Shown in pieces: positions 2,922 through 23,450 of a stretch of DNA of 64,000 bases. How positions within the stretch are numbered: the first letter of the stretch is position 1; every line of letters begins with the position of its first letter. The DNA lies in contig OZ219926.1 in the NCBI GenBank assembly GCA_964291405.2, positions 2,752,001 through 2,816,000 of the forward strand. Direction: 5' to 3'. A program made the position numbers and the translations under genes. The DNA is from Thermodesulfobacteriota bacterium. GTDB taxonomy: Bacteria > Desulfobacterota > Binatia > Bin18. Under the pieces are notes generated by a model. It was not told the DNA's origin and made no database searches. It saw only the letters and a program-made list of their open reading frames with translations.

Positions 2922-3554
2922 ATGGATGTCTCAGGCGTGGTGCAGCAACTGTCCATTTGGGTACTGCCGGTCCTTGTGGCGGTCATCTTGCACGAGCTCG
3001 CGCATGGCTATAGCGCCTATCTGCTGGGTGATCCGACCGCTGCCCGAATGGGTCGCCTGACCCTGAATCCAATTGCCCATATCGATCTGCTTGGAACCCT
3101 CTTATTACCCTTCCTGCTGATCATGACTGGCGCGCCGTTTCTGTTTGGCTACGCCAAGCCCGTTCCCGTAGACTTTACGAATCTGCGCAACCCCCGACGA
3201 GATATGGTCCGTGTGGCCGCGGCTGGTCCGATCATGAACCTGATATTAGCCGGACTGTCCGCCTTTGCGCTGAAGTTCCTGCTGTCCCTCCAACTCATCA
3301 CCGATGGACTGGTCGCCCGCAACCTGTTGAATAGCGTCCTGATCAATGTTGTACTCGCCGTCTTTAATTTGTTTCCGCTCCCGCCGCTCGACGGCGGGCG
3401 GGTCGCCACCGGACTGCTGCCTCGGCAGCCGGCTCTGGTGCTCGCCAGGCTTGAGCCCTATGGCATGTTGATCGTGATATTCCTGTTGATGACCGGGATT
3501 CTTGGCGACATACTTCAACCGCCGGTGCTCTTTGTCCTCAACACTCTCTTGTGA
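2922..3554 (+). CDS. site-2 protease family (M50) membrane metalloprotease
   Basis: HELAH, AAAGP and NLFPLPPLDGG motifs; start chosen at ATG 2922. Confidence 0.92.
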   Translation: MDVSGVVQQLSIWVLPVLVAVILHELAHGYSAYLLGDPTAARMGRLTLNPIAHIDLLGTLLLPFLLIMTGAPFLFGYAKPVPVDFTNLRNPRRDMVRVAAAGPIMNLILAGLSAFALKFLLSLQLITDGLVARNLLNSVLINVVLAVFNLFPLPPLDGGRVATGLLPRQPALVLARLEPYGMLIVIFLLMTGILGDILQPPVLFVLNTLL

Positions 3555-6194: not shown

Positions 6195-6783
6195 AGTTGA
6201 TGGGCACCTGATCGATTTGCCTACCGGTTGGCTGTATTTCCTGCTGCATAAACCACCGCGTGTGGTCAGCACCCTCAAAGATCCAGAGGGGCGTCCAACG
6301 GTCCGCGATTTGCTCTCCGGTGTTCGCGAACGTCTCTTTCCGGTCGGTCGTCTTGACTATGACTCATCCGGGCTGCTGCTGCTGACCAATGACGGCGCGC
6401 TGACGGAACGCCTTCTCCATCCCCGTTTTCAGGTGCCTCGCACCTATCAGGCAAAGGTCGGTGGTGTCGTCACCAGCAGAGCGCTGGCCGAGCTTCGCCG
6501 CGGCGTACAATTGGACGATGGCGCTCTCGCGGCCCCTGCCGAGGCGCATATTCTCCGGGCAACGGCTCGGAAGACCTGGCTCGAACTGGTGCTGCGCGAA
6601 GGACGCAACCGCGAGGTGCGCCGGATGTGTGAGGCGCTCGGCTATCGGGTGGAAAAATTGATCCGCGTGCAGTACGGCCCGCTCAGTTTAGACGTTCCGG
6701 TGGGTGCTTACCGGATGCTGATCCCACAAGAGGTCAAACGCCTGAAGCATCTGGTTGAAAGGCCTGCGCAATCACGACCTTAA
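6022..6783 (+). CDS. rluB: rRNA pseudouridine synthase (RsuA/RluB family)
   Basis: S4 domain RLQKILSQAGISSRRAAE, GRLDYDSSGLLLLTNDG, EGRNREVRRM; start uncertain and overlaps scpB. Confidence 0.9.
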   Translation: MRTQKTAQTQRLQKILSQAGISSRRAAERLIQAGRVRVNGQTVTRLGTTADPRQDRIEVDGHLIDLPTGWLYFLLHKPPRVVSTLKDPEGRPTVRDLLSGVRERLFPVGRLDYDSSGLLLLTNDGALTERLLHPRFQVPRTYQAKVGGVVTSRALAELRRGVQLDDGALAAPAEAHILRATARKTWLELVLREGRNREVRRMCEALGYRVEKLIRVQYGPLSLDVPVGAYRMLIPQEVKRLKHLVERPAQSRP

Positions 6784-8776: not shown

Positions 8777-10192
8777 CTACTCAACGGCCGGTTTGGTCGC
8801 TTGCCAGGGGCACATCTTCTCGAACGCCGCGGAGGCACGTAGCACCCCGGCATCGTCAAACCGCCGTCCCACAATTTGGAGTCCGACTGGCAAGCCTGCT
8901 TTTGTAAATCCACACGGAATGGACGCCGCCGGATTCCCGGTCAGATTGAAGGGAAACGTAAAGGTGAGCCACTCGTACGGGGAGAGCCGGGTGCCGTTTA
9001 CTGATTTGGCATTGTCGAGCCCGACCGCAAACGGCGGGCAGGGCAGGGTCGGGGTAAGCAGCAGGGTGTATTTCTCAAAAAATTTCTGGACCCCGGTATT
9101 CCAGTCCAGGCGCGCGAACCACGCGTCAATATAGTGGTTGGCTTTCCATTTATGCGTTTTCTCAATCAACTTCACCAGATTGGGATCAATATCCGACCGG
9201 CGCGTTTTGAGCGCTGGCCCCAGCCGGGCAGCAATCCCGCCACAAAACAGACCCTCCCAGGCCGGTTGCGGGTTTGGCCATTTGGGTTTGACGCTTTCGA
9301 CCCGACACCCCAGGTCCCTGAACCGCCGGGCCGCCTTGGCGCACAGGGCTTTGACCTCCGGGTCAAGCGCCTTGGTAGAGCCCAGATCATCGCACCATGC
9401 CACCCGCCAGCCTTCCATTGAGCCCTTGAGAGCTTTGACATAGTCGGTCGTGTCCGCCGGTAGAGAGTACTGGTCGTGCCCGTCCGGTCCTGCCGTGACG
9501 TTCAGCATGAGCGCGGCATCGGCCACCGTCCGCGTCATCGGCCCGACATGCGACAAACTCCAGGCTCCGCTCGGCGGATACACCGGAATCCGGCCAAAGG
9601 ACGGCTTGATCCCATATACCCCGCTGAACGACGAAGGGATACGGATTGAGCCGCCCCCATCCGTTCCTATGGCCAGAGGTCCCAGGCCGGCCGCGATCGC
9701 CGCTCCGGCTCCGCCACTTGAGCCGCCCGGTGTCAAGGCGAGATTCCACGGATTCCGGGTTGGCCCGAACAAGAGATTGTGCGTGACTCCCAGCCAGCCA
9801 AACGTTGGCGTATTTGTCTTGCCGAGCTGAATGCCCCCCGCCGCTTTCATGCGTGCCACCATGGGGGCATCTTCAGTCGGGACGTTGTCGGCGAACAGCG
9901 GTGTCCCAAACGTCGTGCGCACCCCTTTGGTTATCACCAGGTCCTTGGTTGAGAACGGAACGCCGTGGAGCGGACCAAGTGAAGCCGAGCGCTGCATCAG
10001 CATTTTCTCGGCTTTACGCGCGTCGCGCAGCGCGGCTTTGTCCGTCAGGGTGACAAAGGCGTTGAGCCGTGGGTTGAGTTGGTCAATGCGATCGAGTATC
10101 GCTCGCGTGACTTCGACCGGGGAGAGCTGTTTGCGCCGAATCGCTTTCGCCAGTTCGGTTGCGGACAGCCAGCAGATATCGTCCTTTGCCAT
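8777..10192 (-). CDS. amidase signature family protein
   Basis: TKD, GGSSGG and GTDGGGSIRIPS (Ser-cisSer-Lys triad). Confidence 0.93.
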   Translation of the reverse strand: MAKDDICWLSATELAKAIRRKQLSPVEVTRAILDRIDQLNPRLNAFVTLTDKAALRDARKAEKMLMQRSASLGPLHGVPFSTKDLVITKGVRTTFGTPLFADNVPTEDAPMVARMKAAGGIQLGKTNTPTFGWLGVTHNLLFGPTRNPWNLALTPGGSSGGAGAAIAAGLGPLAIGTDGGGSIRIPSSFSGVYGIKPSFGRIPVYPPSGAWSLSHVGPMTRTVADAALMLNVTAGPDGHDQYSLPADTTDYVKALKGSMEGWRVAWCDDLGSTKALDPEVKALCAKAARRFRDLGCRVESVKPKWPNPQPAWEGLFCGGIAARLGPALKTRRSDIDPNLVKLIEKTHKWKANHYIDAWFARLDWNTGVQKFFEKYTLLLTPTLPCPPFAVGLDNAKSVNGTRLSPYEWLTFTFPFNLTGNPAASIPCGFTKAGLPVGLQIVGRRFDDAGVLRASAAFEKMCPWQATKPAVE

Positions 10193-10651
10193 GTTGTTCT
10201 TTCTGCTCACTTTTGTTAGCACTTCACCCTTTTCTAAAAGTGAGGGATTTCAGGGGCTTGGCGAGTTTATTGTGGTTTTTCTTCTTACCTCTCTCAGGCT
10301 TCTGACATATCCTTAATACTACCATTTCATTGTGACACAGGTTTTCTCCGTATTCAAAGGGAAACTCCCTCATAACTCCCCGCTCCCAGGTCCCCCCGCT
10401 GCCCGGAGGCGGCCGCCCCGACGGGCAAGCCACAGCCCGTTCAGAACGCTTGACCGACACGGTGTCTGGCGTTATCTATTGTACTTTTTCTGCGTAACTT
10501 ATTTATATTACACCACTTTTTACTCCTCATATTAGTAGCAAACCCCTCAAGACTAGGGGAACTAGCGGTGCATGACGGTAGCGGACCGTAGACGAGAGGA
10601 AGCCAGTATACCACCAGCAGTCGGTGCCGATACCGAGAGAGGACATACCAC

Positions 10652-11635
10652 GTGCCCCGCAACGACCAAGTCACTCGCCAGTGGTTCTTGATGCAGAAAT
10701 TGGAGCAGTCCCAAGGGGCGACCGTGCAGGAATTGGCCGCCTCCCTGCCCGAAGATTTTTCCTGTCACCCGCGCACCATTCGACGCGACCTCGAAGCCCT
10801 GGAGGCCGCGCATATTCCTCTCGTCACCGAACGCAGCAACGGGCAGACCCGCTGGCGGCTGATGGACGGCTATCGCAAAGTCCTTCCCCTGGCACTCTCG
10901 CCGACCGAACTCATGGCCCTGGTCTTCAGCCGGGATTTACTGCAACCCCTGGAAGGAACGGAACTCAAGGCGTCGCTCGATTCTGCGCTCAACAAGGCCG
11001 CAGCCGCGCTACCAGCAGAGGGCACACGCTATCTTGAGCAACTCCGAAGCCATTTTTCCGTCGGGCTGGGTGCCCACAAGACCTACCGTCAGCATAGACA
11101 GACCATAGACCACCTCCAGCGGGCCATTGCCCAGACGCGCACCGTACAAATGCGCTATTACACGGCCTCGCGCGACCGGACCGGCCGCCGCGAGGTGGAC
11201 CCCTATCACCTGTGGTACGCCGACGGCGGGCTGTATCTGATCGGCCACTGTCACCTGCGCCAGGAGGTGCGCATGTTTGCAGTGGACCGGATTCGTTCCC
11301 TGACCTTGACCAATCGTCCCTGCCAGATGCCGTTCGATTTCGACCTGGACGCTTATGTGAAGGACGCCTTGGTGGTCATGCGCGGAACACCGATTGAGGT
11401 CGAACTGTTGTTCGACAAACCCACCAGCGCCTGGGTGAAAGGCCGGCAGTGGCACCCGAGCCAGCAGACCACGGAACGGAAAGACGGACGCCTGGCCATG
11501 TCGATTCGCGCGGCAGATACGCGCGAGTTGGTTGGCTGGGTGTTGCACTTTGGTAGTGGGGTGCAGGTCATCAGCCCGGAATCCTTCCGAGACAAGGTCC
11601 GCGCAGAAGCCCAAAAAATTTGTGAACAGGAGTGA
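10652..11635 (+). CDS. HTH-WYL(-WCX) transcriptional regulator
   Basis: wHTH RTIRRDLEAL; WYL domain REVDPYHLWYADGGLYLIGHCHLRQEVRMFAVDRI; directly upstream of the cas genes. Confidence 0.92.
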   Translation: MPRNDQVTRQWFLMQKLEQSQGATVQELAASLPEDFSCHPRTIRRDLEALEAAHIPLVTERSNGQTRWRLMDGYRKVLPLALSPTELMALVFSRDLLQPLEGTELKASLDSALNKAAAALPAEGTRYLEQLRSHFSVGLGAHKTYRQHRQTIDHLQRAIAQTRTVQMRYYTASRDRTGRREVDPYHLWYADGGLYLIGHCHLRQEVRMFAVDRIRSLTLTNRPCQMPFDFDLDAYVKDALVVMRGTPIEVELLFDKPTSAWVKGRQWHPSQQTTERKDGRLAMSIRAADTRELVGWVLHFGSGVQVISPESFRDKVRAEAQKICEQE

Positions 11636-11657
11636 CCCCGGATGTCACACCGGTGTG
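11632..11657. promoter_or_regulatory. candidate WYL operator palindromes
   Basis: GTGAC-N7-GTCAC (11632-11648) overlapping the perfect palindrome CACACCGGTGTG (11646-11657). Confidence 0.5.
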
Positions 11658-11701
11658 CTACAGGCAATGCAAATGAACTGACCCAGCGACGGCCCCTGCT
11701 T

Positions 11702-11738
11702 CCCTCTCCCCTGGAGGGAGAGGGCTAGGGTGAGGGGG
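11702..11738. repeat. CCCTCTCCC..GGGAGAGGG..GGGTGAGGG short palindromic repeat
   Basis: Hairpin motif typical of REP-like intergenic repeats. Confidence 0.6.
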
Positions 11739-11764
11739 AAGAGATGGAGAAAGGAACATATCGC

Positions 11765-11890
11765 ATGCCCTCGATTGATTTAGCGTTTCGCCTGACCGGA
11801 TCAGCCCTTCCGGTTGACCACGGCTATGCCTTGTATGCCGCGCTGAGCCGGATTCTGCTCTCAACCTTCAACAAAATATCTGCCTCTTAA
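11765..11890 (+). pseudogene. cas6: truncated Cas6 (Cmx6/I-MYXAN-type) N-terminal fragment
   Basis: MPSIDLAFRLTGSALPVDHGYALYAALSRI then stop after 41 aa; RBS-like AAGGA upstream. Confidence 0.8.
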
Positions 11891-11908
11891 TATAGAAGAA
11901 CCGTTTTT

Positions 11909-12889
11909 ATGGATGATTTCTCTCCGTCTGATCTCAAGACCATTCTCCACTCAAAACGCGCCAATATGTACTACCTTCAACACTGTCGGGTATTGGTCAA
12001 TGGTGGGCGAGTGGAATATGTGACCGATCAGGGTAAACAGTCTCTCTACTGGAATATCCCTATCGCTAATACAACCTCTTTGCTTTTGGGCACGGGCACC
12101 TCAATAACACAAGCAGCAATGCGCGAATTAGCCAAGGCTGGTGTCTTGGTCGGGTTTTGCGGCGGCGGCGGCTCGCCTCTATTTGCGGCAAATGAAGTTG
12201 AAGTGGATGTGTCTTGGCTGAGTCCACAGAGCGAATATCGGCCTACGGAGTATTTACAGCACTGGGTCAGTTTCTGGTTTGACGAAGACAGCCGCGTTGC
12301 CGCTGCAAAAGCGTTCCAACACGTGCGTTTTGAACAGATTAGAAAACATTGGCTGGATTCGACAATGCAACGGGAAAGCGCGTTTGATCTCAGCGCCGCT
12401 GCTCTCACCACTATTCTTGATACGACACAAGAATCATTGGAATTGTGTCAAACAACCAATGCCATTCTTTCGCTAGAAGCCCAGATTACCAAGCATCTAT
12501 ACAGACTTGCAGTCAACGCTGTTGGCTATGGAGAGTTTGTCCGTGCGAAACGGGGCTCAGGCTCCGACTTGGCGAACCGATATCTTGACCACGGGAATTA
12601 TCTCGCTTACGGACTGGCGGCCACTGCGGCCTGGGTGCTTGGCCTGCCTCATGGTCTCGCGGTACTGCACGGAAAGACCAGGCGGGGAGGGCTGGTCTTT
12701 GATATCGCCGACCTAGTGAAAGACGCTCTGATCCTCCCGCAAGCCTTCATTTCGGCAATGGCCGGTCAGGATGAACAAGAATTTCGTCAAGCCTGCCTCC
12801 ACCGATTCAATCAAGCCGAAGCCCTGGACACCATGATAGACACCATCAAGTCTGTTGCGATTGAGTTCAGCAAAGTCCCACGACCATGA
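11909..12889 (+). CDS. cas1: type I-F CRISPR-associated endonuclease Cas1f
   Basis: SDLKTILHSKRAN, YWNIPIANTT, HGKTRRGGLVFD. Confidence 0.97.
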   Translation: MDDFSPSDLKTILHSKRANMYYLQHCRVLVNGGRVEYVTDQGKQSLYWNIPIANTTSLLLGTGTSITQAAMRELAKAGVLVGFCGGGGSPLFAANEVEVDVSWLSPQSEYRPTEYLQHWVSFWFDEDSRVAAAKAFQHVRFEQIRKHWLDSTMQRESAFDLSAAALTTILDTTQESLELCQTTNAILSLEAQITKHLYRLAVNAVGYGEFVRAKRGSGSDLANRYLDHGNYLAYGLAATAAWVLGLPHGLAVLHGKTRRGGLVFDIADLVKDALILPQAFISAMAGQDEQEFRQACLHRFNQAEALDTMIDTIKSVAIEFSKVPRP

Positions 12890-15800
12890 ATATCTTGCTT
12901 ATCTCTCAGTGCAATAAAAGAGCCCTGGTTGAAACTAGGCGCGTTCTGGATCAATTTGCAGAACGCAAAGGTGAGCGTACCTGGCAAACAGCAATCACAC
13001 TTCAAGGTTTGCAGACACTCCGCAAGATGCTGAAAAAATCAGCGCGGAGAAATACCGCCGTGGCCTGTCACAGAATCGGCGGCAAGAATTACAGCGAATT
13101 GCTGTGGGTGGTCGGCAACGCCAACAAGTTCAATATCGAAGGCACGATCCCGACCAATTTCACCCGGCGCGACGTGTTGAAGGCCGACGACGAGAACCAA
13201 TGGTACACGGCAACGATTATTGCCCTTCTCTCGGCACTAGCAGCCTTGTTTCACGACTTTGGGAAAGCCAATGTCCTGTTCCAGGACAAGCTGAAAAAAG
13301 GAAAGCGTGCCACGGAGCCATATCGCCACGAATGGGTCAGTCTCCGCATGTTTGAGGCGTTTGTTCGCGGCGAGCCAGACGAACAATGGCTGCAACGGTT
13401 AGCCAACGTTTCGAGCAGTGATGAACAGAGCCTCTTAGACCGCCTCAAAGCAATACAGGACCACCCCGATACAGTAATAGATTCGCCGTTCAAGTCTCTG
13501 AAACCCCTCGCGCAAGCGGTCGGCTGGCTTATCCTGACGCACCACAAACTTCCACAGACTCCGAAAGAGGAAAAAGGACGACTCAAGCACATTGCCTATT
13601 TCCTCAGCCGCCACCTTCAACCCGATTGGAACTCGTCTCGGGAAAGATGGGTGAAGGGCGAACGGAAAGAGTGGGCCGGCGCAGACGAAGAAGTCGGTCA
13701 GGTTTGGACTTTCCCAGACGGAACACCGTTAAGAAGTAGTACTTGGTGCAAGAAAGCCCGGAACATCGCCCAACGATTGGCGCAACCCGGCATTTTTGAT
13801 TCGTCTGATTCGTCCTGGGACAACGATTTTGTTATGCACGTTGCCCGCATGACCCTCATGCTGGCGGACCACTATTACTCGTCGCAGGACCGCGATCCAA
13901 GGTACGGGGATGATGGTTACAAGGTCTACGCCAACACTGACAAGGACGGCAATCGGAAACAACAGCTTGATGAGCACCTTGTCGGTGTCTACAAGCACAG
14001 CTTACGGATTATGAGAATCCTCCCTGGGCTGAGAAACACCTTACCGGCACTCGGACGACATGCGGCCTTCAAGAAACGGACACGAGACAGCCGGTTTCTC
14101 TGGCAGAATAAAGCCTACGAATTGGCATGTTCTCTGAAGGACAAGGCACAAGAGGGTGGTTTTTTCGGGGTAAACATGGCGTCAACCGGGTGTGGCAAAA
14201 CGTTTGCCAACGCACGCATCATGTATGCCTTGGCTGACGAGAAACGTGGCTGCCGGTTCAGTGTTGCCTTGGGTTTACGAACCCTGACACTACAGACCGG
14301 CGATGCTTTCCGGCAAAGAATGCTGCTAGACGAAGATGATATGGCAGTGATGATTGGCTCTGCCGCGGTCCGCAAGCTCCATGAAGATCAAGTGGCGGAA
14401 AAGGAAAAAGAGGAACAGGAAAAACCGGACAGGTTCACCGGATCGGAATCCGCCGAGGCGTTAGATGACGACTATTACATCATCTATGACGAGGCGCTTG
14501 CAGATACCGCGCTCAAGCGTTGGCTCAAAGCCTCGCCAAAGGCAGACCGTATGGTCGGTGCGCCTATCTTGGTCAGCACGATTGACCATCTTATGCCAGC
14601 AACGGAAGGCACGCGCGGCGGCCGGCAGATTGCTCCCATGCTCCGCCTGCTGACCTCAGACTTGGTGATAGACGAGCCGGACGATTTCAGTCTTGATGAC
14701 CTCAAGGCACTGACCCGTTTGGTCCATTGGGCCGGAATGCTGGGCAGCAAGGTCGTGCTCTCTTCCGCAACGCTTTCTCCTGCTCTCCTGACCGGACTCT
14801 TCCAGGCATATCATATTGGACGGACCGTCTATAACAAAAATTGTGGAAACCCGAACCAGGAAACTATCTACTGCGCGTGGTTTGACGAGAAAAAGGCAGA
14901 GCCCGCAGCCATTGCCAATGTCGAAGAGTTTCGTGCCAATGTGGAGAAGTTTCGTCAACAGCACAGTACTTTTACGAAGGATCGAGCGGCAGAGCTCGCA
15001 ACTGGACATCCGAAACGAAAAGCAGAAATCGTGTCGTTGACCGGCTCTGTACTGACGCCGCAGGACGCTGTGAATGTAATGAGTGAAAAGATTCTCGAAG
15101 GCATACACCGACTGCACAGCGACCACAGCCAAGAAGACCCAAAGACCAAGAAAAGAATCAGTGTTGGTCTGGTCCGCATGGCGAACATCAACCCGCTTGT
15201 ATCCGTCGCACAGCGTTTGCTGGAAAAGGAGCCCCCGGCTGATACAACTGTCCACTATTGCGTGTACCATAGTCGGTTTCCCTTGATCGTGCGATCCGAA
15301 ATCGAGCGCATTCTTGATACGGTCCTGACTCGAAAGGACGGCAAAGAACTCTGGCAGTCCTCCGTTATCCAAGAAGCAATCGCACGCGCCGCTACCACAA
15401 ATCATATCTTTGTCGTGATAGCCTCTCCCGTAGCCGAGATCGGACGCGATCATGACTATGATTGGGCAGTTGTCGAACCGAGTTCTATGCGGTCTCTCGT
15501 CCAAATAGGCGGACGGGTCTTACGTCACAGGGACCGGCTACCAGAAACGGTGAACATGCTCTTGTTGAGTAAAAACTATAGGGGTTTGACAGGCAAACGG
15601 CCCGCGTTCTGTCGCCCCGGTTTCGAGTCCGACGACAGGCGACTTACCCGCTATGACTTGGCCGACCTTCTCTGCGAGGACCAATACACCGTGATTGATT
15701 CCCGACCCTGCATCGTCCCGAGAGAGAATTTCGACCCAACACAAAACCTGGCGGACATGGAACATCGGGAAACCGATCTTGCCTTCTCCAGCCCTGACCA

Positions 15801-16206
15801 AAGCGACCCATATGCCTCGCAGTGGATCAAATCACGCGCCACGCTGACCGGGGAGCTTCAGAAGCGGACGCCGTTTCGGAAGTCTGCCAAAGAAGACGAC
15901 TATTTCCTGCACCTAGGAGAAGGCGATGAGGAACCCACAGTCAGAAAATGGCACGGAGACGGACCGTACAAAGAAGCCAAAGACTGTGATGAGATTAACC
16001 TGACCGAACTGTCTATAGATTCTGGCAACAGAATATGGGGGCACGTTGCTTACTCGGACGCACTGAACCGGCTGGCACAGAAGGAAGGCAAGGACGTAGA
16101 AGAACTTGGCAAGACCTACGGGACGTTTTCCTTGCGGCCTGCACGGATTGGCTGGCCTTGGCAATATACCCCAAAAATCGGTTTTTATGAGCCGATGAAA
16201 AAATGA
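12886..16206 (+). CDS. cas3: type I-F Cas2-3 fusion helicase/nuclease
   Basis: Cas2 N-terminus MNILLISQCNKRAL, HDFGK HD motif, STGCGKT, DEPD, QIGGRVLRHR. Confidence 0.97.
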   Translation: MNILLISQCNKRALVETRRVLDQFAERKGERTWQTAITLQGLQTLRKMLKKSARRNTAVACHRIGGKNYSELLWVVGNANKFNIEGTIPTNFTRRDVLKADDENQWYTATIIALLSALAALFHDFGKANVLFQDKLKKGKRATEPYRHEWVSLRMFEAFVRGEPDEQWLQRLANVSSSDEQSLLDRLKAIQDHPDTVIDSPFKSLKPLAQAVGWLILTHHKLPQTPKEEKGRLKHIAYFLSRHLQPDWNSSRERWVKGERKEWAGADEEVGQVWTFPDGTPLRSSTWCKKARNIAQRLAQPGIFDSSDSSWDNDFVMHVARMTLMLADHYYSSQDRDPRYGDDGYKVYANTDKDGNRKQQLDEHLVGVYKHSLRIMRILPGLRNTLPALGRHAAFKKRTRDSRFLWQNKAYELACSLKDKAQEGGFFGVNMASTGCGKTFANARIMYALADEKRGCRFSVALGLRTLTLQTGDAFRQRMLLDEDDMAVMIGSAAVRKLHEDQVAEKEKEEQEKPDRFTGSESAEALDDDYYIIYDEALADTALKRWLKASPKADRMVGAPILVSTIDHLMPATEGTRGGRQIAPMLRLLTSDLVIDEPDDFSLDDLKALTRLVHWAGMLGSKVVLSSATLSPALLTGLFQAYHIGRTVYNKNCGNPNQETIYCAWFDEKKAEPAAIANVEEFRANVEKFRQQHSTFTKDRAAELATGHPKRKAEIVSLTGSVLTPQDAVNVMSEKILEGIHRLHSDHSQEDPKTKKRISVGLVRMANINPLVSVAQRLLEKEPPADTTVHYCVYHSRFPLIVRSEIERILDTVLTRKDGKELWQSSVIQEAIARAATTNHIFVVIASPVAEIGRDHDYDWAVVEPSSMRSLVQIGGRVLRHRDRLPETVNMLLLSKNYRGLTGKRPAFCRPGFESDDRRLTRYDLADLLCEDQYTVIDSRPCIVPRENFDPTQNLADMEHRETDLAFSSPDQSDPYASQWIKSRATLTGELQKRTPFRKSAKEDDYFLHLGEGDEEPTVRKWHGDGPYKEAKDCDEINLTELSIDSGNRIWGHVAYSDALNRLAQKEGKDVEELGKTYGTFSLRPARIGWPWQYTPKIGFYEPMKK

Positions 16207-16258
16207 CGGTTTGCTTCGTATCGGCCAGTAAGATGGCAGGAACGAAGCTAACGGACCA

Positions 16259-16286
16259 ATTCACTACCGCACGGGTAGCTAAGAAA
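16259..16286 (+). CRISPR. solitary diverged type I-F repeat in the cas3-csy1 intergenic region
   Basis: ATTCACTACCGCACGGGTAGCTAAGAAA matches the array repeat at 23/28; stem CTACC/GGTAG carries a compensatory G-C to A-T change; CTAAGAAA handle intact. Confidence 0.85.
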
Positions 16287-16321
16287 TATCTATCGATATT
16301 TATACTTTTAGAGGAGATTTC

Positions 16322-17602
16322 GTGATGCCAAACACACAACAGAACGGGCTTACTGCTCGAATCCTGGAATACGTCCAGCAACGAGAAGCCGAGGAACTGA
16401 AGAACGTCAAGGACGATGCCAAACGACTGAAAATCGCGGCCAAGTACGAACCTCAAACCTGGCTGAGCGAGAAAGCCCGTACAGCAAAAAGCGTCGCTGC
16501 CTCCTCTTGGCAGTCATTCTCCGATGTCACGCATGTGGCGAAGTTTGTCCACGGCGGCGCAGAGGCGAGTAGCGTTTCCACAACGGGAGCGAAAGAAACT
16601 GACGGCTATATTTCCACGCCCAGTGTTGCAATGCTCACCTACGATACCGCCTGCAATGCTGCTGCCCTCCCTATTAAGCCTTTCTTGCTTCTCGAACATG
16701 ACGGTCGGACACTGATTGATGCCTTGCGACAAGGGGACGTGTCTCCGCTCTTGGAGATTGCTCCAGATGAAACAACGGCGCAGGAGTGGGCAAGCGCGTT
16801 TATCTCGGCTTTTGAGGCAAAGGAACCCGACGCACACATGATCAAACAGTGCTATTGGCCGGTCCCCAGCGATGGGTATCATCTCCAGATTCCGCTTTAC
16901 CCTACGTCATTCGCGCAGGCGATTTATGCGTCTATTCAACGCGCAAAATTCTCCGGCGAGGCCAAAGCAACCCGGAAAGCCCGCAGCGATGAACAGGAAT
17001 CCGACCGAGAAGATGTCCGCTATCCAAACCTTGCCATTCAGAGCTTTGGCGGCTCTAACAAACAGAACATCAGCCAACTGAACAGCCCGCGTGGTGGCAA
17101 AGCCTACTTGTTCTCATGCGCGCCACCAACCTGGAAACGACGGAACGCTCCGCCTCTGCACATCTCCTCCGTTTTTCCCTCTTGCTTTGAACGCCAAGTC
17201 CGGTCCCGACATATCAAGCCGCTACAGGAGTTCCTGTACAGCGTTCGAGACAAGGACACTAACGCCAGAATCAGAAAACACCGCGAGGGACGGGTGGATG
17301 CCCTGATAGATGTCATTCTGAGTCAGGCGGCTGACATTCAACAGATGCAACCGGGATGGAGCGCTGACCCTGACTGCCGGTTGCCGCTTGCGGAGCAGTA
17401 TTGGTTAGACCCTGAAAGAGCGGAGACGGATGAGGGTTTTCGGTCCGAACGAGACGCGGCTGACTGGCAAACCGAGGTCGCCAACACCTTTGCTATCTGG
17501 CTCAGTCGCAAACTGGAGCGTAACGGGCTTGCTTTCGGTGCCGATGAACAACATGCACTACGCAGCGATTGGCGTAATCGCATGAGGGAGGGGATTGTAT
17601 GA
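16322..17602 (+). CDS. csy1: type I-F Cas8f (Csy1)
   Basis: THVAKFVH, KQCYWPV, FGGSNKQNISQLNS, WLDP. Confidence 0.93.
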   Translation: MMPNTQQNGLTARILEYVQQREAEELKNVKDDAKRLKIAAKYEPQTWLSEKARTAKSVAASSWQSFSDVTHVAKFVHGGAEASSVSTTGAKETDGYISTPSVAMLTYDTACNAAALPIKPFLLLEHDGRTLIDALRQGDVSPLLEIAPDETTAQEWASAFISAFEAKEPDAHMIKQCYWPVPSDGYHLQIPLYPTSFAQAIYASIQRAKFSGEAKATRKARSDEQESDREDVRYPNLAIQSFGGSNKQNISQLNSPRGGKAYLFSCAPPTWKRRNAPPLHISSVFPSCFERQVRSRHIKPLQEFLYSVRDKDTNARIRKHREGRVDALIDVILSQAADIQQMQPGWSADPDCRLPLAEQYWLDPERAETDEGFRSERDAADWQTEVANTFAIWLSRKLERNGLAFGADEQHALRSDWRNRMREGIV

Positions 17603-18531
17603 TGGACCATGATTTTGTTGTTGTTTTGAGGCATCTGGAAGTCCACGGGGCCAACGCCATTACTGGCGCGACCTATGGGTTTCCCGCAATAACGCATTTC
17701 CTGGGCCACGCGCACGCCTTGCAACGCAAGCTGTCGGAAGAGTTTGCTCTGACCTTTGACGGCTGCGGGGTTGTTTGTCACCGGCATCATGTCCACGCGC
17801 ACAGACCTCCTGGCGGCCTTGGCTTCACCGATTTCGGTTTCGCTCTGAGCCGCAATCCTCTTGATAAAAAGGGCCAGTCACCGTCGTTTGTCGAAGAGGG
17901 CAAGATGAATATGGAGGTGACGCTGCTCATAGCCGTAACGGAAGGAAACCAACCAATCGGTCCGGTAGAGCAGGAGAAACTAAAAAAAGATTTGTTGAAC
18001 CAGTCAACCCGACAACGCTTGGCCGGTGGAGTTATTACCAACACGCCGGAAATTGAAATCATCCAGAGCGAGGCTTTTGAAGAGGGCCGGAAGAAAATCC
18101 TACGAGACCTCCTGCCGGGATTTGCGTTAGTGAGTCGGCACGATTTGCTGCTGGCCGAGCAGGACCGACAACGCAAGGCTGGCGTTCAAGACCCGGAACT
18201 CGCCGCCTGGATGTCGTTTTCGACGATACGGTACGCCGCCGATACAAACCAAACACAGAACGGCAAAACTCCGTGGCTGTTGGTGGAAAAACCGGCGACC
18301 GGGTGGATCACGCCTCTTGCCGTAGGCTATCGGCGCATCTCCCCACTGTACGGCCCTGGAAAGGTCAAGAATGTCCGCGACCCGACTGTACCGGCCTGTT
18401 TTGTGGAAAACCTGTATTCCCTCGGGCAGTGGATCAGTCCGCACAGAATCACAGACACGGACCATTTGTTCTGGCAGCAGGAATACGACGGTACAGGGCG
18501 GTATCTCTGCCGCAATTCGTATGAACCATAA
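17599..18531 (+). CDS. csy2: type I-F Cas5f (Csy2)
   Basis: [48 protein letters not shown]. Confidence 0.95.
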
Positions 18532-18619
18532 AGAGGGAGATGGTGATGTAGACATAGAAGGTTCGTGCGGAAAGAGGGCCGATTTCACAAACCGAAAGTA
18601 CAAAGAAAGGACCATCACT

Positions 18620-19642
18620 ATGACAACGCAGGTAAAAACAGCATCAGTCCTGGCGTTCGAGCGGAAACTGGCGAACTCCGACGGCCTGATGTACTCAGGC
18701 AAATGGGAGAATCGAGACAATGCGGAATCCTGGTCGCCACTGACGGTCCACGAGAAAGCAGTACGGGGTACTATCTCAAACCGCCCGAAGACCAAAGGCG
18801 ATTCAGACCCTTTGAAACTGAACGAGAAAATCGAGAACCCGAATCCCCAGACGGTCGATGTGGCCATGCTGCCGCACGATCACGACACGGTGATACTCGC
18901 GTTTACGCTTCGAGTGCTCTCAGACCTGGATGTCCCATCTGCGTGTAATGACGCGGACTACCAAGAGGCGTTGGGGACAACGATCAATACCTATATCGCC
19001 AAGCACGGTTTTGCCGAATTGTCTCAGCGCTATGCCACGAATATAGCCAATGGGCGCTTCCTGTGGCGGAATCGTGTCGGCGCTGAAACCGTTACGGTAC
19101 GTGTGACCCGGTATCAGGGGCAGGAAGTCGTAGCCAGATGGGACTTTGAGAGCGGCCGTATATCCTTGCGGGATTTCGGTACTACGGACGTGGACGTGTC
19201 TGCACTCGCAGCCGCTATTGAAGCCGGTCTGAAAGGGGAGGCGTTTACGTTTCTCAAGATAGAAGGCTTTGCCCGTCTCGGCGAGGGACAGGAGGTGTTT
19301 CCCTCTCAGGAACTCATTTTAGACCGAGACAATGCCGGGAAGAGCAAAACGCTCTATGAAATTGGGGGTGTGGCGGGATTGCATTCTCAAAAAATCGGCA
19401 ACGCGCTGAGAACAATAGACACCTGGTATCCCGAAGCAGACCAATTTGGCCCCATATCGGTTGAACCGTTTGGCTCCGTCACCAATCGTGGCAAGGCATA
19501 CCGCCAGCCCAAAGACAAGCTGGATTTCTATACCCTCCTCGATAATTGGGTCTTAAAAGGAAAGACCCCCGAAGTGGAACAGCAACATTACGTTATGGCC
19601 GTGTTGGTTCGGGGCGGTGTTTTTGGAGAAAAGTCAGAGTGA
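18620..19642 (+). CDS. csy3: type I-F Cas7f (Csy3)
   Basis: [41 protein letters not shown]. Confidence 0.96.
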
Positions 19643-19651
19643 GGTAGGAGC

Positions 19652-20203
19652 ATGGACCATTACGTTGATATCCAGGTGCTTCCCGACCCGGAGTTTCTGG
19701 AGACCACGCTCATGAATGAACTGTTCTCCAAATTGCACCGGGCGCTGGGGAAACACGGGCAGGGCAAAATAGGAGTGAGTTTTCCCAAGCACGGCAAAAC
19801 CCTTGGACCGCGAATTCGTCTACATGGCAGCAAAGGGGCGCTTGAGGAATTCATGCAAACGCAGTGGATAGCGGGCATGACGGATTATTGTCGTGTCAGC
19901 GCTGTTTGCCCTGTCCCCCCTCAGACTTCATTCTGTACGGTCAGGCGAGTCCAAGCGAAGAGTGCATACAACAAACGGAACCGCTCGGTGGCGAAGGGCT
20001 GGTTGGATGAATCTGAAGCGCAGAAGCGTATTCCCGATTCTCAACAGAGAATGCTTGATCTGCCATACGCTCAACTCCGCAGTTTATCGAATGGAAATAT
20101 GATGCGCGTTTATATTGAGCATAGTAAGCCGATCCAACAATCCGTCGCAGGGTCATTTTCCGCCTATGGTCTCAGCAGCACTGCTACCGTCCCCTGGTTT
20201 TGA
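19652..20203 (+). CDS. csy4: type I-F Cas6f (Csy4) crRNA endoribonuclease
   Basis: MDHYVDI..PDPEF, catalytic His in KLHRAL, YGLSSTATVPWF. Confidence 0.96.
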   Translation: MDHYVDIQVLPDPEFLETTLMNELFSKLHRALGKHGQGKIGVSFPKHGKTLGPRIRLHGSKGALEEFMQTQWIAGMTDYCRVSAVCPVPPQTSFCTVRRVQAKSAYNKRNRSVAKGWLDESEAQKRIPDSQQRMLDLPYAQLRSLSNGNMMRVYIEHSKPIQQSVAGSFSAYGLSSTATVPWF

Positions 20204-20332
20204 CCCTTTTTTCCTGGTTATCCATAACCCTTTGATTTACTTGTATATTTTTTAGGGGTTCGTATTAAGGTAAAGTCGTCACGTTTTACCCGAACTCCTT
20301 GAGAATCAAAGGCTTACACATCTGTGTCTTCA
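20204..20332 (+). promoter_or_regulatory. CRISPR leader with two IHF consensus sites
   Basis: AT-rich; WATCAANNNNTTR matches at 20225-20237 (minus) and 20304-20316 (plus). Confidence 0.8.
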
Positions 20333-21861
20333 GTTCACTGCCGTACAGGCAGCTAAGAAATACACGCTTGATCTCTTTGCCGGTGATTCTGCGTTCACTG
20401 CCGTACAGGCAGCTAAGAAAAGCTAGAGCTAGACGTACAACTGTTGAACCCCGTTCACTGCCGTACAGGCAGCTAAGAAAACCCAGATATGCCGGGCTGT
20501 GGGGTGTGCTGGGTTCACTGCCGTACAGGCAGCTAAGAAAACCCTGGATTCCGTAGCGGCGGGAGACATGGTGTTCACTGCCGTACAGGCAGCTAAGAAA
20601 AGTTGCCTGGCATTTTTGCCGGGGCAGACTATGTTCACTGCCGTACAGGCAGCTAAGAAAACCGTGGAGTGCCGCGCCGTGACCCTGACCGTGTTCACTG
20701 CCGTACAGGCAGCTAAGAAAGCCATATGGTAACCCAGAAGCTGGCCGATGCCGTTCACTGCCGTACAGGCAGCTAAGAAAAGCTTGATCCTCACCGTTCC
20801 CCCTGTCTTAACGTTCACTGCCGTACAGGCAGCTAAGAAAAAATCGTCGGGGACGTAGCGCCTGGACCAAGTGTTCACTGCCGTACAGGCAGCTAAGAAA
20901 TGAAAGCTGCTCAACTCCTGAACCTCCCGACCGTTCACTGCCGTACAGGCAGCTAAGAAATATCGTTGATTGGTGATTCAATGGTCGATTTTGTTCACTG
21001 CCGTACAGGCAGCTAAGAAAAAGCGGAATTCCCAGATGGCCGAGGCGATACGGGTTCACTGCCGTACAGGCAGCTAAGAAAGCTCAGCCTAGAGGAGGAA
21101 GAGCCGATGAAAGGTTCACTGCCGTACAGGCAGCTAAGAAAACCAGCGGCTGACGAAACCCGAACTGCTGGATGTTCACTGCCGTACAGGCAGCTAAGAA
21201 ATTCGCGAAGTCATGTCGAACGACCTGGAGGGCGTTCACTGCCGTACAGGCAGCTAAGAAATATTGGGGGTCGCCATACTTCTATTTATGTTCGTTCACT
21301 GCCGTACAGGCAGCTAAGAAAACCGGGCTTGTCGTGCAGAACGAGGCCGGGACGTTCACTGCCGTACAGGCAGCTAAGAAATCCTCTGCTGTTGGGCATC
21401 CACTATGGATATTGTTCACTGCCGTACAGGCAGCTAAGAAAGTCTGCCTCTGATTACCCGCATTCGGCACTCAGTTCACTGCCGTACAGGCAGCTAAGAA
21501 AAACAAAAGCGAGCAAGACGACACGATGCACACGTTCACTGCCGTACAGGCAGCTAAGAAATATCGACTGGCGCGGCGGGTCAACCAGCTCGTGTTCACT
21601 GCCGTACAGGCAGCTAAGAAAAAGAGCATCAAGTCGGTCCGCTATCCAGTCGCGTTCACTGCCGTACAGGCAGCTAAGAAATTGATGTCGCCGAAGACCG
21701 TAGAGTACTGTCCGTTCACTGCCGTACAGGCAGCTAAGAAAAACGCGACTACGCCCGCAGCGAGCACGGCAAGGTTCACTGCCGTACAGGCAGCTAAGAA
21801 AAGCGAAAGCAGGTGGTTGAGCGCTGTATTGAAGTTCACTGCCGTACAGGCAGCTAAGAAA
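20333..21861 (+). CRISPR. type I-F array: 26 repeats GTTCACTGCCGTACAGGCAGCTAAGAAA, 25 spacers (32 nt, one 33 nt)
   Basis: Exact 28-nt repeats at 60-nt period with a one-base shift after repeat 12. Confidence 0.99.
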
Positions 21862-21905
21862 CTGGAAAATCAAGGACTTATCCAAGAAACCCTGGTGCCC
21901 GGTTT

Positions 21906-21984
21906 GTCACCCCTGTGAAAACAGGGACAGGAATCCAGGCTATCCGCCTACGTCCTCTGGATGCCGGATCACGTCCGACATGAC
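21906..21984. repeat. composite palindromic repeat (GTCACCCCTGTGAAAACAGGG / CTGGATGCCGGATCACGTCCGACATGAC)
   Basis: Modules recur at 23491-23586 and 49546-49723. Confidence 0.75.
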
Positions 21985-22038
21985 GAGAGCGGAGCGGCAG
22001 GGCGACAGCTTGGCGTGAAATGCTCTTATTGAGCGAAA

Positions 22039-22075
22039 GAAGCACCGGCCTTAACGAGCCGGTGAGGACTGAAAC
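22039..22075 (+). CRISPR. orphan 37-nt repeat of a different (I-C/I-B-like) class
   Basis: GAAGCACCGGCCTTAACGAGCCGGTGAGGACTGAAAC: 7-bp stem CACCGGC/GCCGGTG and a 3' end resembling GAGGATTGAAAC. Confidence 0.6.
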
Positions 22076-22139
22076 GCCAAATCAAAAGCCCGTTGCTCTT
22101 CGCCTTGACGAAGGTTCAGGAATGAGAAAAAACTAGACC

Positions 22140-22433
22140 ATGACCGAGTTTGAGACAGCGACGATTGCTTTCCAGAACGCTTCCCTGTGGGCAGCCTCTA
22201 TTCAGGCCGGGATAGCGGGCCTGGTAGGACTGGTGCAATGCGCCTTGATTTTTTACGGCTTAAAGCTGATGCAGCGGAGCAATACCGACCGACAACGCCA
22301 AATGGACCTCGCCGAGAAGCGGCATGAGGAAAGCCTGTCGGCCTTACAGACCCAGACGGGCCTTGCCGAGAAGCGGCATGAGGAAAGCCTGCTCACATTA
22401 CGGACACTGATTGAACGGACCGCACCTCGGTGA
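22140..22433 (+). CDS. small single-TM hypothetical protein with internal duplication
   Basis: Hydrophobic helix followed by two LAEKRHEESL units (27-nt exact repeat, 54-nt period). Confidence 0.7.
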   Translation: MTEFETATIAFQNASLWAASIQAGIAGLVGLVQCALIFYGLKLMQRSNTDRQRQMDLAEKRHEESLSALQTQTGLAEKRHEESLLTLRTLIERTAPR

Positions 22434-22571
22434 CGCGCCCCTCCAAAAAAAGGAACGTCACGAAATGTGCCTAGGCCCCCATCCGACCTTGTCACTATCT
22501 GGGCTGAATGGTAGGGTTCCCCTCGATTTTACGGCTCATCCCTCGACTGGAACATATTCAGGAGTACATAC

Positions 22572-23450
22572 ATGCCCGAACAGCAAACAGACATTTCAGC
22601 CCAACGCGTGACCTATCGCGTCGAAGAAGAACTCACCATTATCGGCGACGCCTGGGGAGACACCGGCAATCCGCCCGTCCTGCTCCTGCACGGCGGCGGC
22701 CAAACGCGCTTTGCCTGGGGAAATACGGCCCGGACCCTGGCCGAGCACGGCTGGTATGCAGTGTCCCTGGACCTGCGTGGGCATGGAGAGAGCGGCTGGG
22801 CTCCGGACGGCAATTACAATATCGAGAAGTTTTCTGCGGACCTCCACGTCGTGCTGGGTCATTTTGACCAACGGCCGGTTCTGGTCGGGGCCTCCCTGGG
22901 CGGCATTACCTCAATGCTGACCGAAGGGGAAGCGCCGCAGCCGGTGAGTGCCGGTGTGGTCCTGGTTGATGTCACGCCGCGGGTGGAGCAGAAGGGCGTG
23001 GACCGCATTCGAGCCTTTATGACCGCCCGACCCGACGGCTTTGAGAGTCTGGAAGAAGTCGCCGATACCATCGCCGCCTATATTCCCCACCGTCCCCGTC
23101 CAAAGGATGTGAGCGGGCTGGCCAAAAACCTGCGTAAGGGAGAGGACGGCCGCTACCGCTGGCACTGGGACCCGGACCTCATGAACCCGGCCCGCTTTCG
23201 GCGCGACCCCGAACGGCTCATGGCCGCGGCCCGCGGGCTGCGGCGAGTGCCGACCCTGCTGGTCCGAGGGAAACTCAGCGATGTGATCAGCGACGAAACG
23301 ACCCAGGAATTTCTCGATGCCGTGCCGCATGCCAAATATATCGATGTGTCTGATGCCGGCCATATGGTCGCCGGGGATAAGAACGACATCTTCAGCCAGG
23401 CGGTCATCGAATTCCTGGCCGATATCAAGACAACCGCGCCGGCCGCTTAG
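22572..23450 (+). CDS. alpha/beta hydrolase
   Basis: HGGGQ, DLRGHGES, GASLGG nucleophile elbow, GHMV. Confidence 0.92.
   Translation: MPEQQTDISAQRVTYRVEEELTIIGDAWGDTGNPPVLLLHGGGQTRFAWGNTARTLAEHGWYAVSLDLRGHGESGWAPDGNYNIEKFSADLHVVLGHFDQRPVLVGASLGGITSMLTEGEAPQPVSAGVVLVDVTPRVEQKGVDRIRAFMTARPDGFESLEEVADTIAAYIPHRPRPKDVSGLAKNLRKGEDGRYRWHWDPDLMNPARFRRDPERLMAAARGLRRVPTLLVRGKLSDVISDETTQEFLDAVPHAKYIDVSDAGHMVAGDKNDIFSQAVIEFLADIKTTAPAA

Follow-up and report, generated by a model that had tools for sequence, protein, structure and literature searches.

The locus raises the question of how a type I-F CRISPR-Cas operon came to lie directly behind a WYL regulator gene and the first codons of a cas6 gene of another subtype. 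It was studied in a window of 64,000 nucleotides, the whole stretch of DNA that was analysed, and the genome holding the window (G000) was compared within a set of 28 genomes of the genus, G000 included. The reading we prefer, at a probability of roughly 0.8, is that positions 10194-22099 form a composite CRISPR island of about 11.9 kb, in which an apparently functional type I-F1 system lies inside the shell of an older I-MYXAN (Cmx) system, which we take to be the I-B-like variant of the Myxococcus dev type. The features of the island and its flanks are listed below.

8777-10193, minus strand: amidase-like flanking gene (comparison with the empty sites of congeners)
10194-10613, no strand: left end of the island (homology searches)
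10652-11635, plus strand: HTH-WYL-WCX regulator gene (domain matches; 92.6% identity to the G018 gene directly upstream of an intact cmx6)
11696-11742, no strand: hairpin of a dispersed repeat family, between the WYL gene and cmx6 (13 blastn matches in the genome, itself included)
11765-11890, plus strand: cmx6 stub ORF of 41 aa (11765-11887) with stop codon 11888-11890 (profile matches and DNA homology)
11909-12889, plus strand: cas1f (TIGR03637, 512.5 bits)
12886-16206, plus strand: cas2-cas3f fusion (NCBIfam and domain matches)
16259-16286, plus strand: solitary degenerate I-F-like repeat between cas2-3 and csy1 (23 of 28 positions match)
16322-17602, plus strand: csy1/cas8f (NCBIfam)
17599-18531, plus strand: csy2/cas5f (NCBIfam)
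18621-19642, plus strand: csy3/cas7f (NCBIfam; the ATG at 18621 was taken as the start, the listed ORF running from 18371)
19652-20203, plus strand: csy4/cas6f (NCBIfam)
20204-20332, plus strand: A+T-rich leader preceding the I-F array, with no second copy in the genome
20333-21861, plus strand: I-F array, 26 copies of one 28-nt repeat separated by 25 unique spacers 32-33 nt long
21928-22026, no strand: one copy of a dispersed element some 100 nt long (41 blastn matches in the genome, itself included)
22039-22075, plus strand: solitary repeat of type I-C, a putative fossil, at most 25 nt from the right edge of the island
22140-22433, plus strand: 97-aa ORF with a 54-nt tandem duplication, outside the island (the empty site of G018 carries homologous sequence)

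The limits of the island were set by comparison with congeners. In G000 the flanking amidase and hydrolase genes are separated by 14,037 bp. In the 19 congeners with both flanking genes on one contig, the ones in which the comparison was possible, the gap is 1.7-5.8 kb (gaps were worked out by hand from gene coordinates). The whole block, including the WYL gene, was missing from all 19. Blastn alignment with five empty sites halted at 10193, where the amidase ATG (10191-10193, minus strand) ends in the last base common to island-bearing and empty sites. The alignment restarted earliest in G018, at 22100; in G004, G001, and G026 the restart fell at 22481, and in G017 at about 22486. By these alignments the block 10194-22099 is an insertion at this chromosomal site. 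The island ends showed no sign of mobility such as an integrase or a target-site duplication, and a query with 10194-10651 gave no match besides itself in the fetched loci or elsewhere in the genome.

The initial annotation had taken the 41-aa ORF for the N-terminus of Cas6/Cmx6, broken off just before cas1f, and a profile search of the peptide bore this out. It matched TIGR02807 (cas6_cmx6) over positions 1-31 of 197 (E 2.9e-8, 33.9 bits) and PF09559 over positions 1-30 of 191 (32 bits, gathering threshold 26.7). The first score is far below the whole-protein cut-off of TIGR02807 (98.85), as expected because the peptide is a fragment and not a member protein, a full-length Cas6/Cmx6 having about 197 aa and scoring above the family cut-off; a genome-wide search of G000 found no other cmx6 copy. 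The ORF consists of 31 cmx6 codons, about 10 foreign codons, and a stop that lies 18 nt before the cas1f ATG (11909). DNA homology to the WYL-cmx6 loci of congeners was unbroken from the WYL gene through cmx6 codon 31, and its endpoint fell at 11856-11858 in five of the six fetched I-MYXAN loci, the five that gave a DNA match. One such locus (L020) was 86% identical to the window over 1205 nt, so the stub is not a chance resemblance. The ORF is a genuine cmx6 relic, and what once followed cmx6 codon 31 has been replaced by type I-F.

The gene upstream encodes a WYL-family protein, as judged by matches to an N-terminal HTH domain (PF08279, 24.8 bits, just missing the gathering threshold of 25), a WYL domain (PF13280, 80.7 bits), and a WCX domain (PF25583, 65.1 bits). 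Its orthologues lie directly 5' of cmx6 in G018, G019, and G022. The ancestral order WYL-cas6-...-array that had been proposed is intact in congeners; in G018 it reads WYL-cmx6-cas3-cas8a1/cmx1-cas7(DevR)-cas5(DevS)-cas4/1-cas2-array, with 31 repeats. The I-MYXAN gene set with its array of 36-nt repeats is thus complete in G018 and absent from the window apart from the stub, the genome-wide search of G000 having covered cmx6. G000 also carries an orphan array, 161 kb away, that consists of four I-MYXAN repeats; this array matched the congener I-MYXAN loci within the repeats only, and its leader gave no match.

The single 37-nt hairpin repeat noted beyond the I-F array was recovered at 22039-22075, and its fold had a z-score of -3.66, with none of 200 shuffles folding as well. 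Its assignment to the Cmx6-type system had to be abandoned. The I-MYXAN arrays in the genus have a different repeat of 36 nt, GTGACGACCTATCAGATGCCGTAAGGCGTTGAGCAC, and arrays of near-identical 37-mers were found in G006 (147 pattern matches, one strand), G002, G013, and G019. The G006 array adjoins cas3-cas5c-cas8c-cas7c-cas4-cas1c, so that it stands beside the cas5c-cas8c-cas7c genes that define a type I-C repeat. The window 37-mer differs at two positions from the array repeats of L029 and L030, the former adjoining I-C genes. Against Rfam CRISPR-DR9 it aligned over 1-37 of 37 with 29.3 bits (E 0.0016), below the gathering threshold of 45. The 37-mer is accordingly classed, by sequence and neighbourhood, as the type I-C repeat of the genus. 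It resembles the type I-C (Dvulg) repeat in lying two positions from congener array repeats; unlike in a type I-C system, it is present as a single copy, and the cognate cas genes, including Csd1/cas8c, were not found in G000. In three of the six congener loci (G016, G022, and G027) a solitary I-C repeat closes the I-MYXAN array, and for this reason the 37-nt repeat would still be a relic of the old island trailer; it stands at the island edge for no other reason than that I-MYXAN arrays in the genus often end in one. Part of this association could be coincidental. Orphan I-C repeats are common, a 14-mer pattern occurring in 25 of the 28 genomes. The juxtaposition of an I-C and then an I-F repeat was seen in one genome of 28, G000 itself. 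A match in L025, GTGAGGACTGAGAT, was considered as a trailer fossil and dropped, since it sits among cas genes and not in an array trailer.

The same stub-cas1f junction was found in G017, at a different chromosomal site. The two loci share 84% DNA identity over 11702-13548 and 37 of the 41 stub residues, and the replacement of I-MYXAN by I-F was probably a single event common to G000 and G017. The flanks of the G017 island and those of an island in G022 map to the same G000 genes (C3:1,041,459-1,042,061 and 1,037,362-1,038,207), and G022 carries a decaying I-MYXAN island at this interval. Both islands end in an I-C repeat, half deleted in G017. The swap would most likely have taken place at this interval, with the layers laid down in the order I-C, I-MYXAN, I-F. 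On this reading the left shell runs from the WYL regulator gene through its intergenic region and the ribosome-binding site to cmx6 codon 31, and the right shell is one I-C repeat, the presumed last remnant of a collapsed I-C array. The finished composite block may later have reached the amidase/hydrolase interval of G000; the reverse direction is also possible.

The initial annotation had instead placed the swap in situ, with I-F overwriting an ancestral WYL-cmx6-array locus that already stood in the amidase/hydrolase interval. Two features would agree with this: I-F directly follows the WYL gene and the stub, and its array is followed by a foreign repeat. However, none of the 19 congeners with both flanks has a CRISPR element between the amidase and hydrolase orthologues; the six fetched I-MYXAN islands occupy five other sites, and the G017 junction lies elsewhere, which makes a swap at this site improbable. 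It is very hard to credit that the WYL gene arrived with I-F and that the cmx6-like peptide reflects coincidence or a small gene of its own. PMC12887000 places WYL/HTH-domain genes near cas1 in Shewanella-type I-F1 loci, but the WYL orthologues directly upstream of cmx6, the continuous homology through codon 31, and the stub-free I-F locus of G006, which has no WYL gene, all argue against this reading.

As for the 37-nt repeat, its place just beyond the I-F array, like that of the similar repeat after the I-MYXAN arrays of G016, G022, and G027, would suit an origin in the replaced Cmx6-type system. Such an origin is highly improbable, since the unrelated 36-nt repeat is present in all six fetched I-MYXAN arrays and in the G000 orphan mini-array, and arrays of the 37-mer adjoin I-C cas genes. 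A functional I-C repeat, serving for example as a processing, termination, or decoy site, is unlikely, although several observations favor it: the hairpin is stable, the 3' tail GAGGAYTGAAAC is retained in diverged copies, the stem of the G016 variant is fully compensated, and a two-repeat I-C mini-array is conserved before the same gene in G017 and G018. Against this, no I-C cas8c was found in G000, the G017 copy is half deleted, a second copy in G000 shows two stem mismatches with no compensating change (read by eye), and no T-run follows the hairpin at 22039-22075 on the plus strand. We therefore keep to the reading of the solitary repeat as a fossil; with no I-C effector gene found in G000, it is presumably inert.

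CRISPR turnover is already a known process, and the exchange of I-E and I-F in E. coli is a known turnover of cas clusters; the G000 island is a clean three-layer example (I-C, I-MYXAN, I-F). Subtype turnover is mostly inferred from patchy distributions, and here it can be read base by base, with a breakpoint inside cas6 and an unreplaced sister locus in the matching chromosomal interval of another species (G022 versus G017). As in I-MYXAN, the first 31 cas6/cmx6 codons and the upstream regulator match intact congener systems; unlike in I-MYXAN, the stub alone survives in the window. The third, older layer survives as a single repeat, which suggests that array collapse can leave one repeat as a durable fossil and that composite islands would move as units. 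Arrays without neighboring cas genes are discussed as possible remnant systems in PMC7145637; in contrast to such orphan arrays, a cas gene stub is here fused in frame-context to a different subtype, and both the base-level breakpoint and the unreplaced sister locus are known. A narrow literature search found no equivalent case of a cas stub or subtype swap, nor one among Binatia CRISPR loci.

The locus would also serve as a natural test case for the passage of a regulator between CRISPR subtypes. According to PMC12887000, proteins with a WYL domain repress CRISPR-Cas and defence systems or serve as their sensors. Like those loci, the island encodes an HTH-WYL-WCX protein beside a cas operon; unlike them, it would have received its regulator from a different subtype. 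The stub-free I-F locus of G006 became homologous at 11904, 5 nt before the cas1f ATG, and the native I-F upstream region is missing from G000. Transcription of cas1f and cas2-3 therefore probably starts at the old cmx6 promoter, with WYL regulation a possibility. It is plausible that I-F is controlled by this promoter or by the WYL regulator. A promoter and terminator scan of 10100-12100, 16100-16400, and 20150-22600 found no sigma-70 consensus sites, none upstream of the stub included, and terminator-like matches were at background level. In G017 the equivalent of 11117-11701 is deleted, a loss that takes in the C-terminal half of the WYL gene and the greater part of the intergenic region, so that control by the regulator would be dispensable, at least in G017. 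It is doubtful that the WYL gene, the 5' end of cmx6, and the terminal repeat form a reusable socket that exchanges I-C, I-MYXAN, and I-F cassettes and moves across sites and species, with one WYL sensor controlling whichever is plugged in.

The I-F module itself has a type I-F1 gene set. All six genes (cas1f, cas2-3f, and csy1-4) scored above their NCBIfam cut-offs, and the Cas2 domain (PF21384) covers residues 1-79 of the Cas3 protein. All 26 repeats matched Rfam CRISPR-DR4 (RF01317) with 47.5 bits (gathering threshold 35), and the Rfam match, fold, and spacer lengths (28 nt, 5-bp stem, 32-nt spacers) identify a type I-F1 repeat. As in Pseudomonadota I-F1 systems of the Yersinia, Pectobacterium, and Pseudomonas type, the order is cas1, cas2-3, csy1-4, array, with a 28-nt CRISPR-DR4 repeat, 32-nt spacers, and Cas1f 70-77% identical; unlike those systems, it lies in a Binatia-like host in which I-F is rare, and its native upstream region is replaced by the WYL gene and cmx6 stub. 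Within the genus, 5 of the 28 genomes had a Cas1f, and a sample of 401 genomes of the phylum yielded 6; both figures include G000. The closest Cas1f relatives outside were mostly Pseudomonadota, at no more than 77% identity. These data agreed with the earlier view that I-F is foreign to the lineage. The proposed compositional breakpoint fared less well: GC3 was 0.53-0.62 in the I-F genes, 0.47-0.67 in the I-MYXAN genes of G018, and 0.68-0.74 in the flanks and WYL gene, and so did not separate I-F from I-MYXAN genes. In the Cas1f tree, G017 paired with the stub-free G006 and not with G000, a point against the preferred reading, though the pairing is weak (SH-aLRT 83).

The I-F arrays of G000, G017, and G006 contain 25, 24, and 60 spacers, each unique within its own array and none common between arrays, which indicates that I-F remained active after the swap. 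A search of the spacers against other CRISPR loci and the G000 genome gave self matches only. The sequence after a solitary I-F repeat at a second G000 site was compared with the trailer of the window array; shuffled sequences scored 19 on average (sd 3.5) and the local score was 22, so the similarity is not significant.

Degenerate repeats in cas intergenic regions (CreR/CreA) are reported for I-F in 10.1101/2023.03.10.532045 and 10.1101/2024.10.29.618823. The repeat at 16259-16286 is similarly placed, in a cas intergenic region upstream of effector genes. In a CreR/CreA mini-array two degenerate repeats enclose a pseudo-spacer that matches a cas promoter; here the best candidate for a second repeat matched, not convincingly, at 14 of 28 positions, and no pseudo-spacer target of at least 9 nt was found within the island. 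The stem of this degenerate repeat is preserved by changes on both sides.

The stub, a 41-aa ORF, is followed after 18 nt from its stop by a complete I-F set (cas1f, cas2-3f, csy1, csy2, csy3, and csy4, with the csy3 start placed at ATG 18621), all six genes of which scored above the NCBIfam cut-offs. The features of the island, the inserted block that carries them, are as follows.

10652-11635, HTH-WYL-WCX regulator gene, upstream of the stub
11765-11890, cmx6 stub ORF, 41 aa, whose first 31 residues are the Cas6/Cmx6 N-terminus
20333-21861, I-F array, 26 identical 28-nt repeats
22039-22075, 37-nt hairpin repeat, 177 nt past the last I-F repeat

The 25 spacers are 32-33 nt long and no two are alike. 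About 100 of the 177 nt between the array and the 37-nt repeat (21928-22026) belong to a copy of an element scattered through the genome (41 blastn matches there, itself included). A copy of a second dispersed host repeat family (13 blastn matches including itself) lies at 11696-11742; this family is also present upstream of I-C cas3 in congener G006 (L027 11447-11482).

The initial annotation had read the 41-aa ORF as the N-terminus of Cas6/Cmx6, and profile search bore this out: the ORF matched positions 1-31 of 197 in TIGR02807 (E 2.9e-8) and positions 1-30 of 191 in PF09559 (32 bits; gathering score 26.7). TIGR02807 was also searched in G000, the source genome of the window, and 60 related genomes. 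Matches were found in 11 of the 61 genomes, including G000, and eight of these were among the 27 congeners. The match was full-length and uninterrupted in six congeners (G007, G013, G016, G018, G019, and G027); in G022 cmx6 was split in two pieces, with a TGA within the first, and G017 had the same 31-residue fragment as G000. The intact order in G018 was a WYL orthologue (92.6% identical to that of the window over 323 aa), cmx6, cas3, cas8a1/cmx1, cas7 (DevR), cas5 (DevS), a cas4-cas1 fusion, cas2, and a 31-repeat array. The window and this G018 locus are homologous in DNA over 10655-11856 (86% over 1205 nt) and no further. The homology ended at 11856-11858 in all five loci with a DNA match among the six fetched loci of I-MYXAN, the Cmx6-type system intact in congeners; the sixth, L024, had no DNA match to the window. 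These data indicate that the stub is a true cmx6 relic.

The 37-nt repeat had been taken as a second relic of the Cmx6 system, and this reading failed. All I-MYXAN arrays examined use an unrelated 36-nt repeat. The tail pattern of the 37-nt repeat was present in 25 of the 28 genomes of the genus. It recurs about every 72 nt, as an array, in G006 (147 matches, counted on one strand), G002 (14), G013 (5), and G019 (3); the array repeats of L029 and L030 differ from the window copy at two positions. In G006 such an array comes after cas3, cas5c, cas8c, cas7c, cas4, and cas1c. Judged by these neighbours, the repeat is of type I-C and not of Cmx6 type. Cas8c was found in four of the 28 genomes, and G000 was not among them.

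Orthologues of the genes on either side, an amidase-like gene (8777-10193, minus strand) and a 791-aa gene (24256-26631), were mapped across the genus, and the gaps were computed by hand from the coordinates. Of 27 congeners, 19 have both on one contig, separated by 1,690-5,833 bp, against 14,037 bp in G000; the remaining eight, with the orthologues on separate contigs or no close amidase orthologue, were outside the count. In blastn against five empty sites, the match ended at 10193, exactly the amidase ATG, and restarted at 22481 (G004, G001, and G026), about 22486 (G017), or 22100 (G018), the last being earlier owing to G018 sequence that resembles the beginning of a 97-aa ORF. The block is thus, by these comparisons, an insertion at the window site, and the end and restart points place the island at about 10194-22099, with its right edge at most 25 nt from the end of the I-C repeat. 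At the left edge (10191-10260), which falls on the amidase start codon, island sequence replaces the original RBS and promoter region of the amidase seen in G004 and G018. The 97-aa ORF (22140-22433) has a 54-nt tandem duplication (22298-22405) and could not be assigned to a family with confidence; a related sequence stands at the G018 site, which is empty apart from it.

The G017 stub was identical to that of G000 at 37 of 41 residues, and the junction sequence was the same. Cas1f of the two genomes was 93.6% identical; beyond cas1f the G017 operon was far more diverged (Cas2-3, 67.5%; Csy1, 53%; Csy2, 64%; Csy3, 70.5%; Csy4, 82.5%), and DNA identity dropped from 84% to 69% near 13548. A deletion in G017 corresponds to 11117-11701 and takes out the C-terminal half of WYL together with most of the intergenic sequence. 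In G006, I-F stands without stub or WYL gene, and homology to the window sets in at 11904; about residues 210-963 are deleted from within its cas2-3, although a 61-repeat array is kept. The common junction indicates that the exchange of I-MYXAN for I-F is a single event shared by G000 and G017. When the I-F operons of G000, G017 (L022), and G006 (L116) were compared at window 12886-16206, DNA identity fell sharply near 13500, just past the Cas2 domain, from about 84-85% to 64-72%; this drop suggests separate histories of the adaptation and interference modules.

The flanks of the G017 island map to G000 contig coordinates C3:1,041,459-1,049,889 and 1,029,354-1,038,207, between which G000 is empty. 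The I-MYXAN island of G022 has the same two neighbour genes; it is decaying (WYL in pieces, cmx6 split, three repeats left), with an I-C repeat at its end, and in G017 the 5' half of this repeat closes the island. A single chromosomal interval thus carries the old system in G022 and the composite of stub and I-F in G017. The I-MYXAN islands fetched, six in all, lie at five distinct sites; such islands move. The proposed replacement in situ therefore stands in part: I-F replaced I-MYXAN past cmx6 codon 31, but probably at the G017/G022 interval and not at the window site. Likewise, cmx6 counterparts, intact or decaying, were found in relatives, but away from the amidase-hydrolase interval. The composite block would have moved from the G017 site to that of the window. 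The initial observation is confirmed, and its interpretation holds in part. The case is a finely resolved instance of an already known process, supplemented by a further layer and by clear evidence that such islands move.

That layer is the solitary I-C-type repeat, which despite its type still brackets the old island; it is found just past the last I-MYXAN repeat in three of the six fetched I-MYXAN loci and absent from those of G018, G019, and G013.

G022, 10 nt past the last I-MYXAN repeat
G016, about 60 nt past it, a 37-nt variant with the stem fully compensated
G027, about 275 nt past it, the 14-nt tail alone recognisable

A second G000 site outside the window, about 161 kb from the array (C3:2,935,024-2,935,421; L006 7025-7421, minus strand), carries on one strand four I-MYXAN repeats, 53 nt, one I-C repeat, 26 nt, and one I-F repeat, with no cas genes nearby. 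An I-C repeat followed by an I-F repeat was found in G000 alone of the 28 genomes. Direct-repeat recombination would shrink an array yet could not delete its last repeat, so a collapsed array would be expected to leave a solitary repeat as its fossil. The layer order would then be I-C, I-MYXAN, and then I-F. Two further orphan I-C-type copies occur in G000 at C3:4,214,355-4,214,389 (L007 about 6356-6390; hairpin kept via G-U pairs) and C3:3,010,334-3,010,347, neither with cas genes or an array nearby. In both G017 (L119), which has no cas8c, and G018 (L121), a two-repeat I-C mini-array (about 3020-3130) lies immediately 5' of one and the same small gene, a position conserved between the two species.

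Within the genus, Cas1f was found in five of 28 genomes, complete in G000, G006, and G017 and broken in two in G021 and G022; in a phylum sample it was found in six of 401, G000 counted. A contig scan confirmed 561 relatives, of which the best 80 were used, with these class labels: 63 Gammaproteobacteria, 7 Betaproteobacteria, 2 Binatia, 2 Desulfuromonadia, 1 Desulfobacteria, and 5 without a class label. The top two, titled Candidatus Binatia (L036, 94% identity; L037, 91%; others listed, at most 77%), grouped with the window in the unrooted tree (SH-aLRT 99, stem 0.25), but no close donor was apparent among these 80. The I-F genes had a lower GC3 (0.53-0.62) than WYL and the flanks (0.68-0.74); it was just as low in the I-MYXAN genes of G018 (0.47-0.67).

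The window has intact I-F genes and identical repeats, and spacer turnover is complete between G000, G017, and G006. Because the region upstream of cas1f kept in G006 is absent in the window, the old cmx6 promoter probably drives cas1f and cas2-3, and their transcription may be under WYL control. Promoter scans supported neither point. The truncated WYL gene of G017 shows that the regulator is dispensable. Between cas2-3 and csy1, a solitary I-F-like repeat (16259-16286) matches at 23 of 28 positions, its 5-bp stem kept by change on both sides and its CTAAGAAA tail intact. It scored 32.2 bits against Rfam CRISPR-DR4, just below the gathering score of 35. It may act as a regulator of the CreR/CreA kind or mark a site of Cas6f processing. 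A more degenerate copy lies at the same place in G017 (L022 from 9378).
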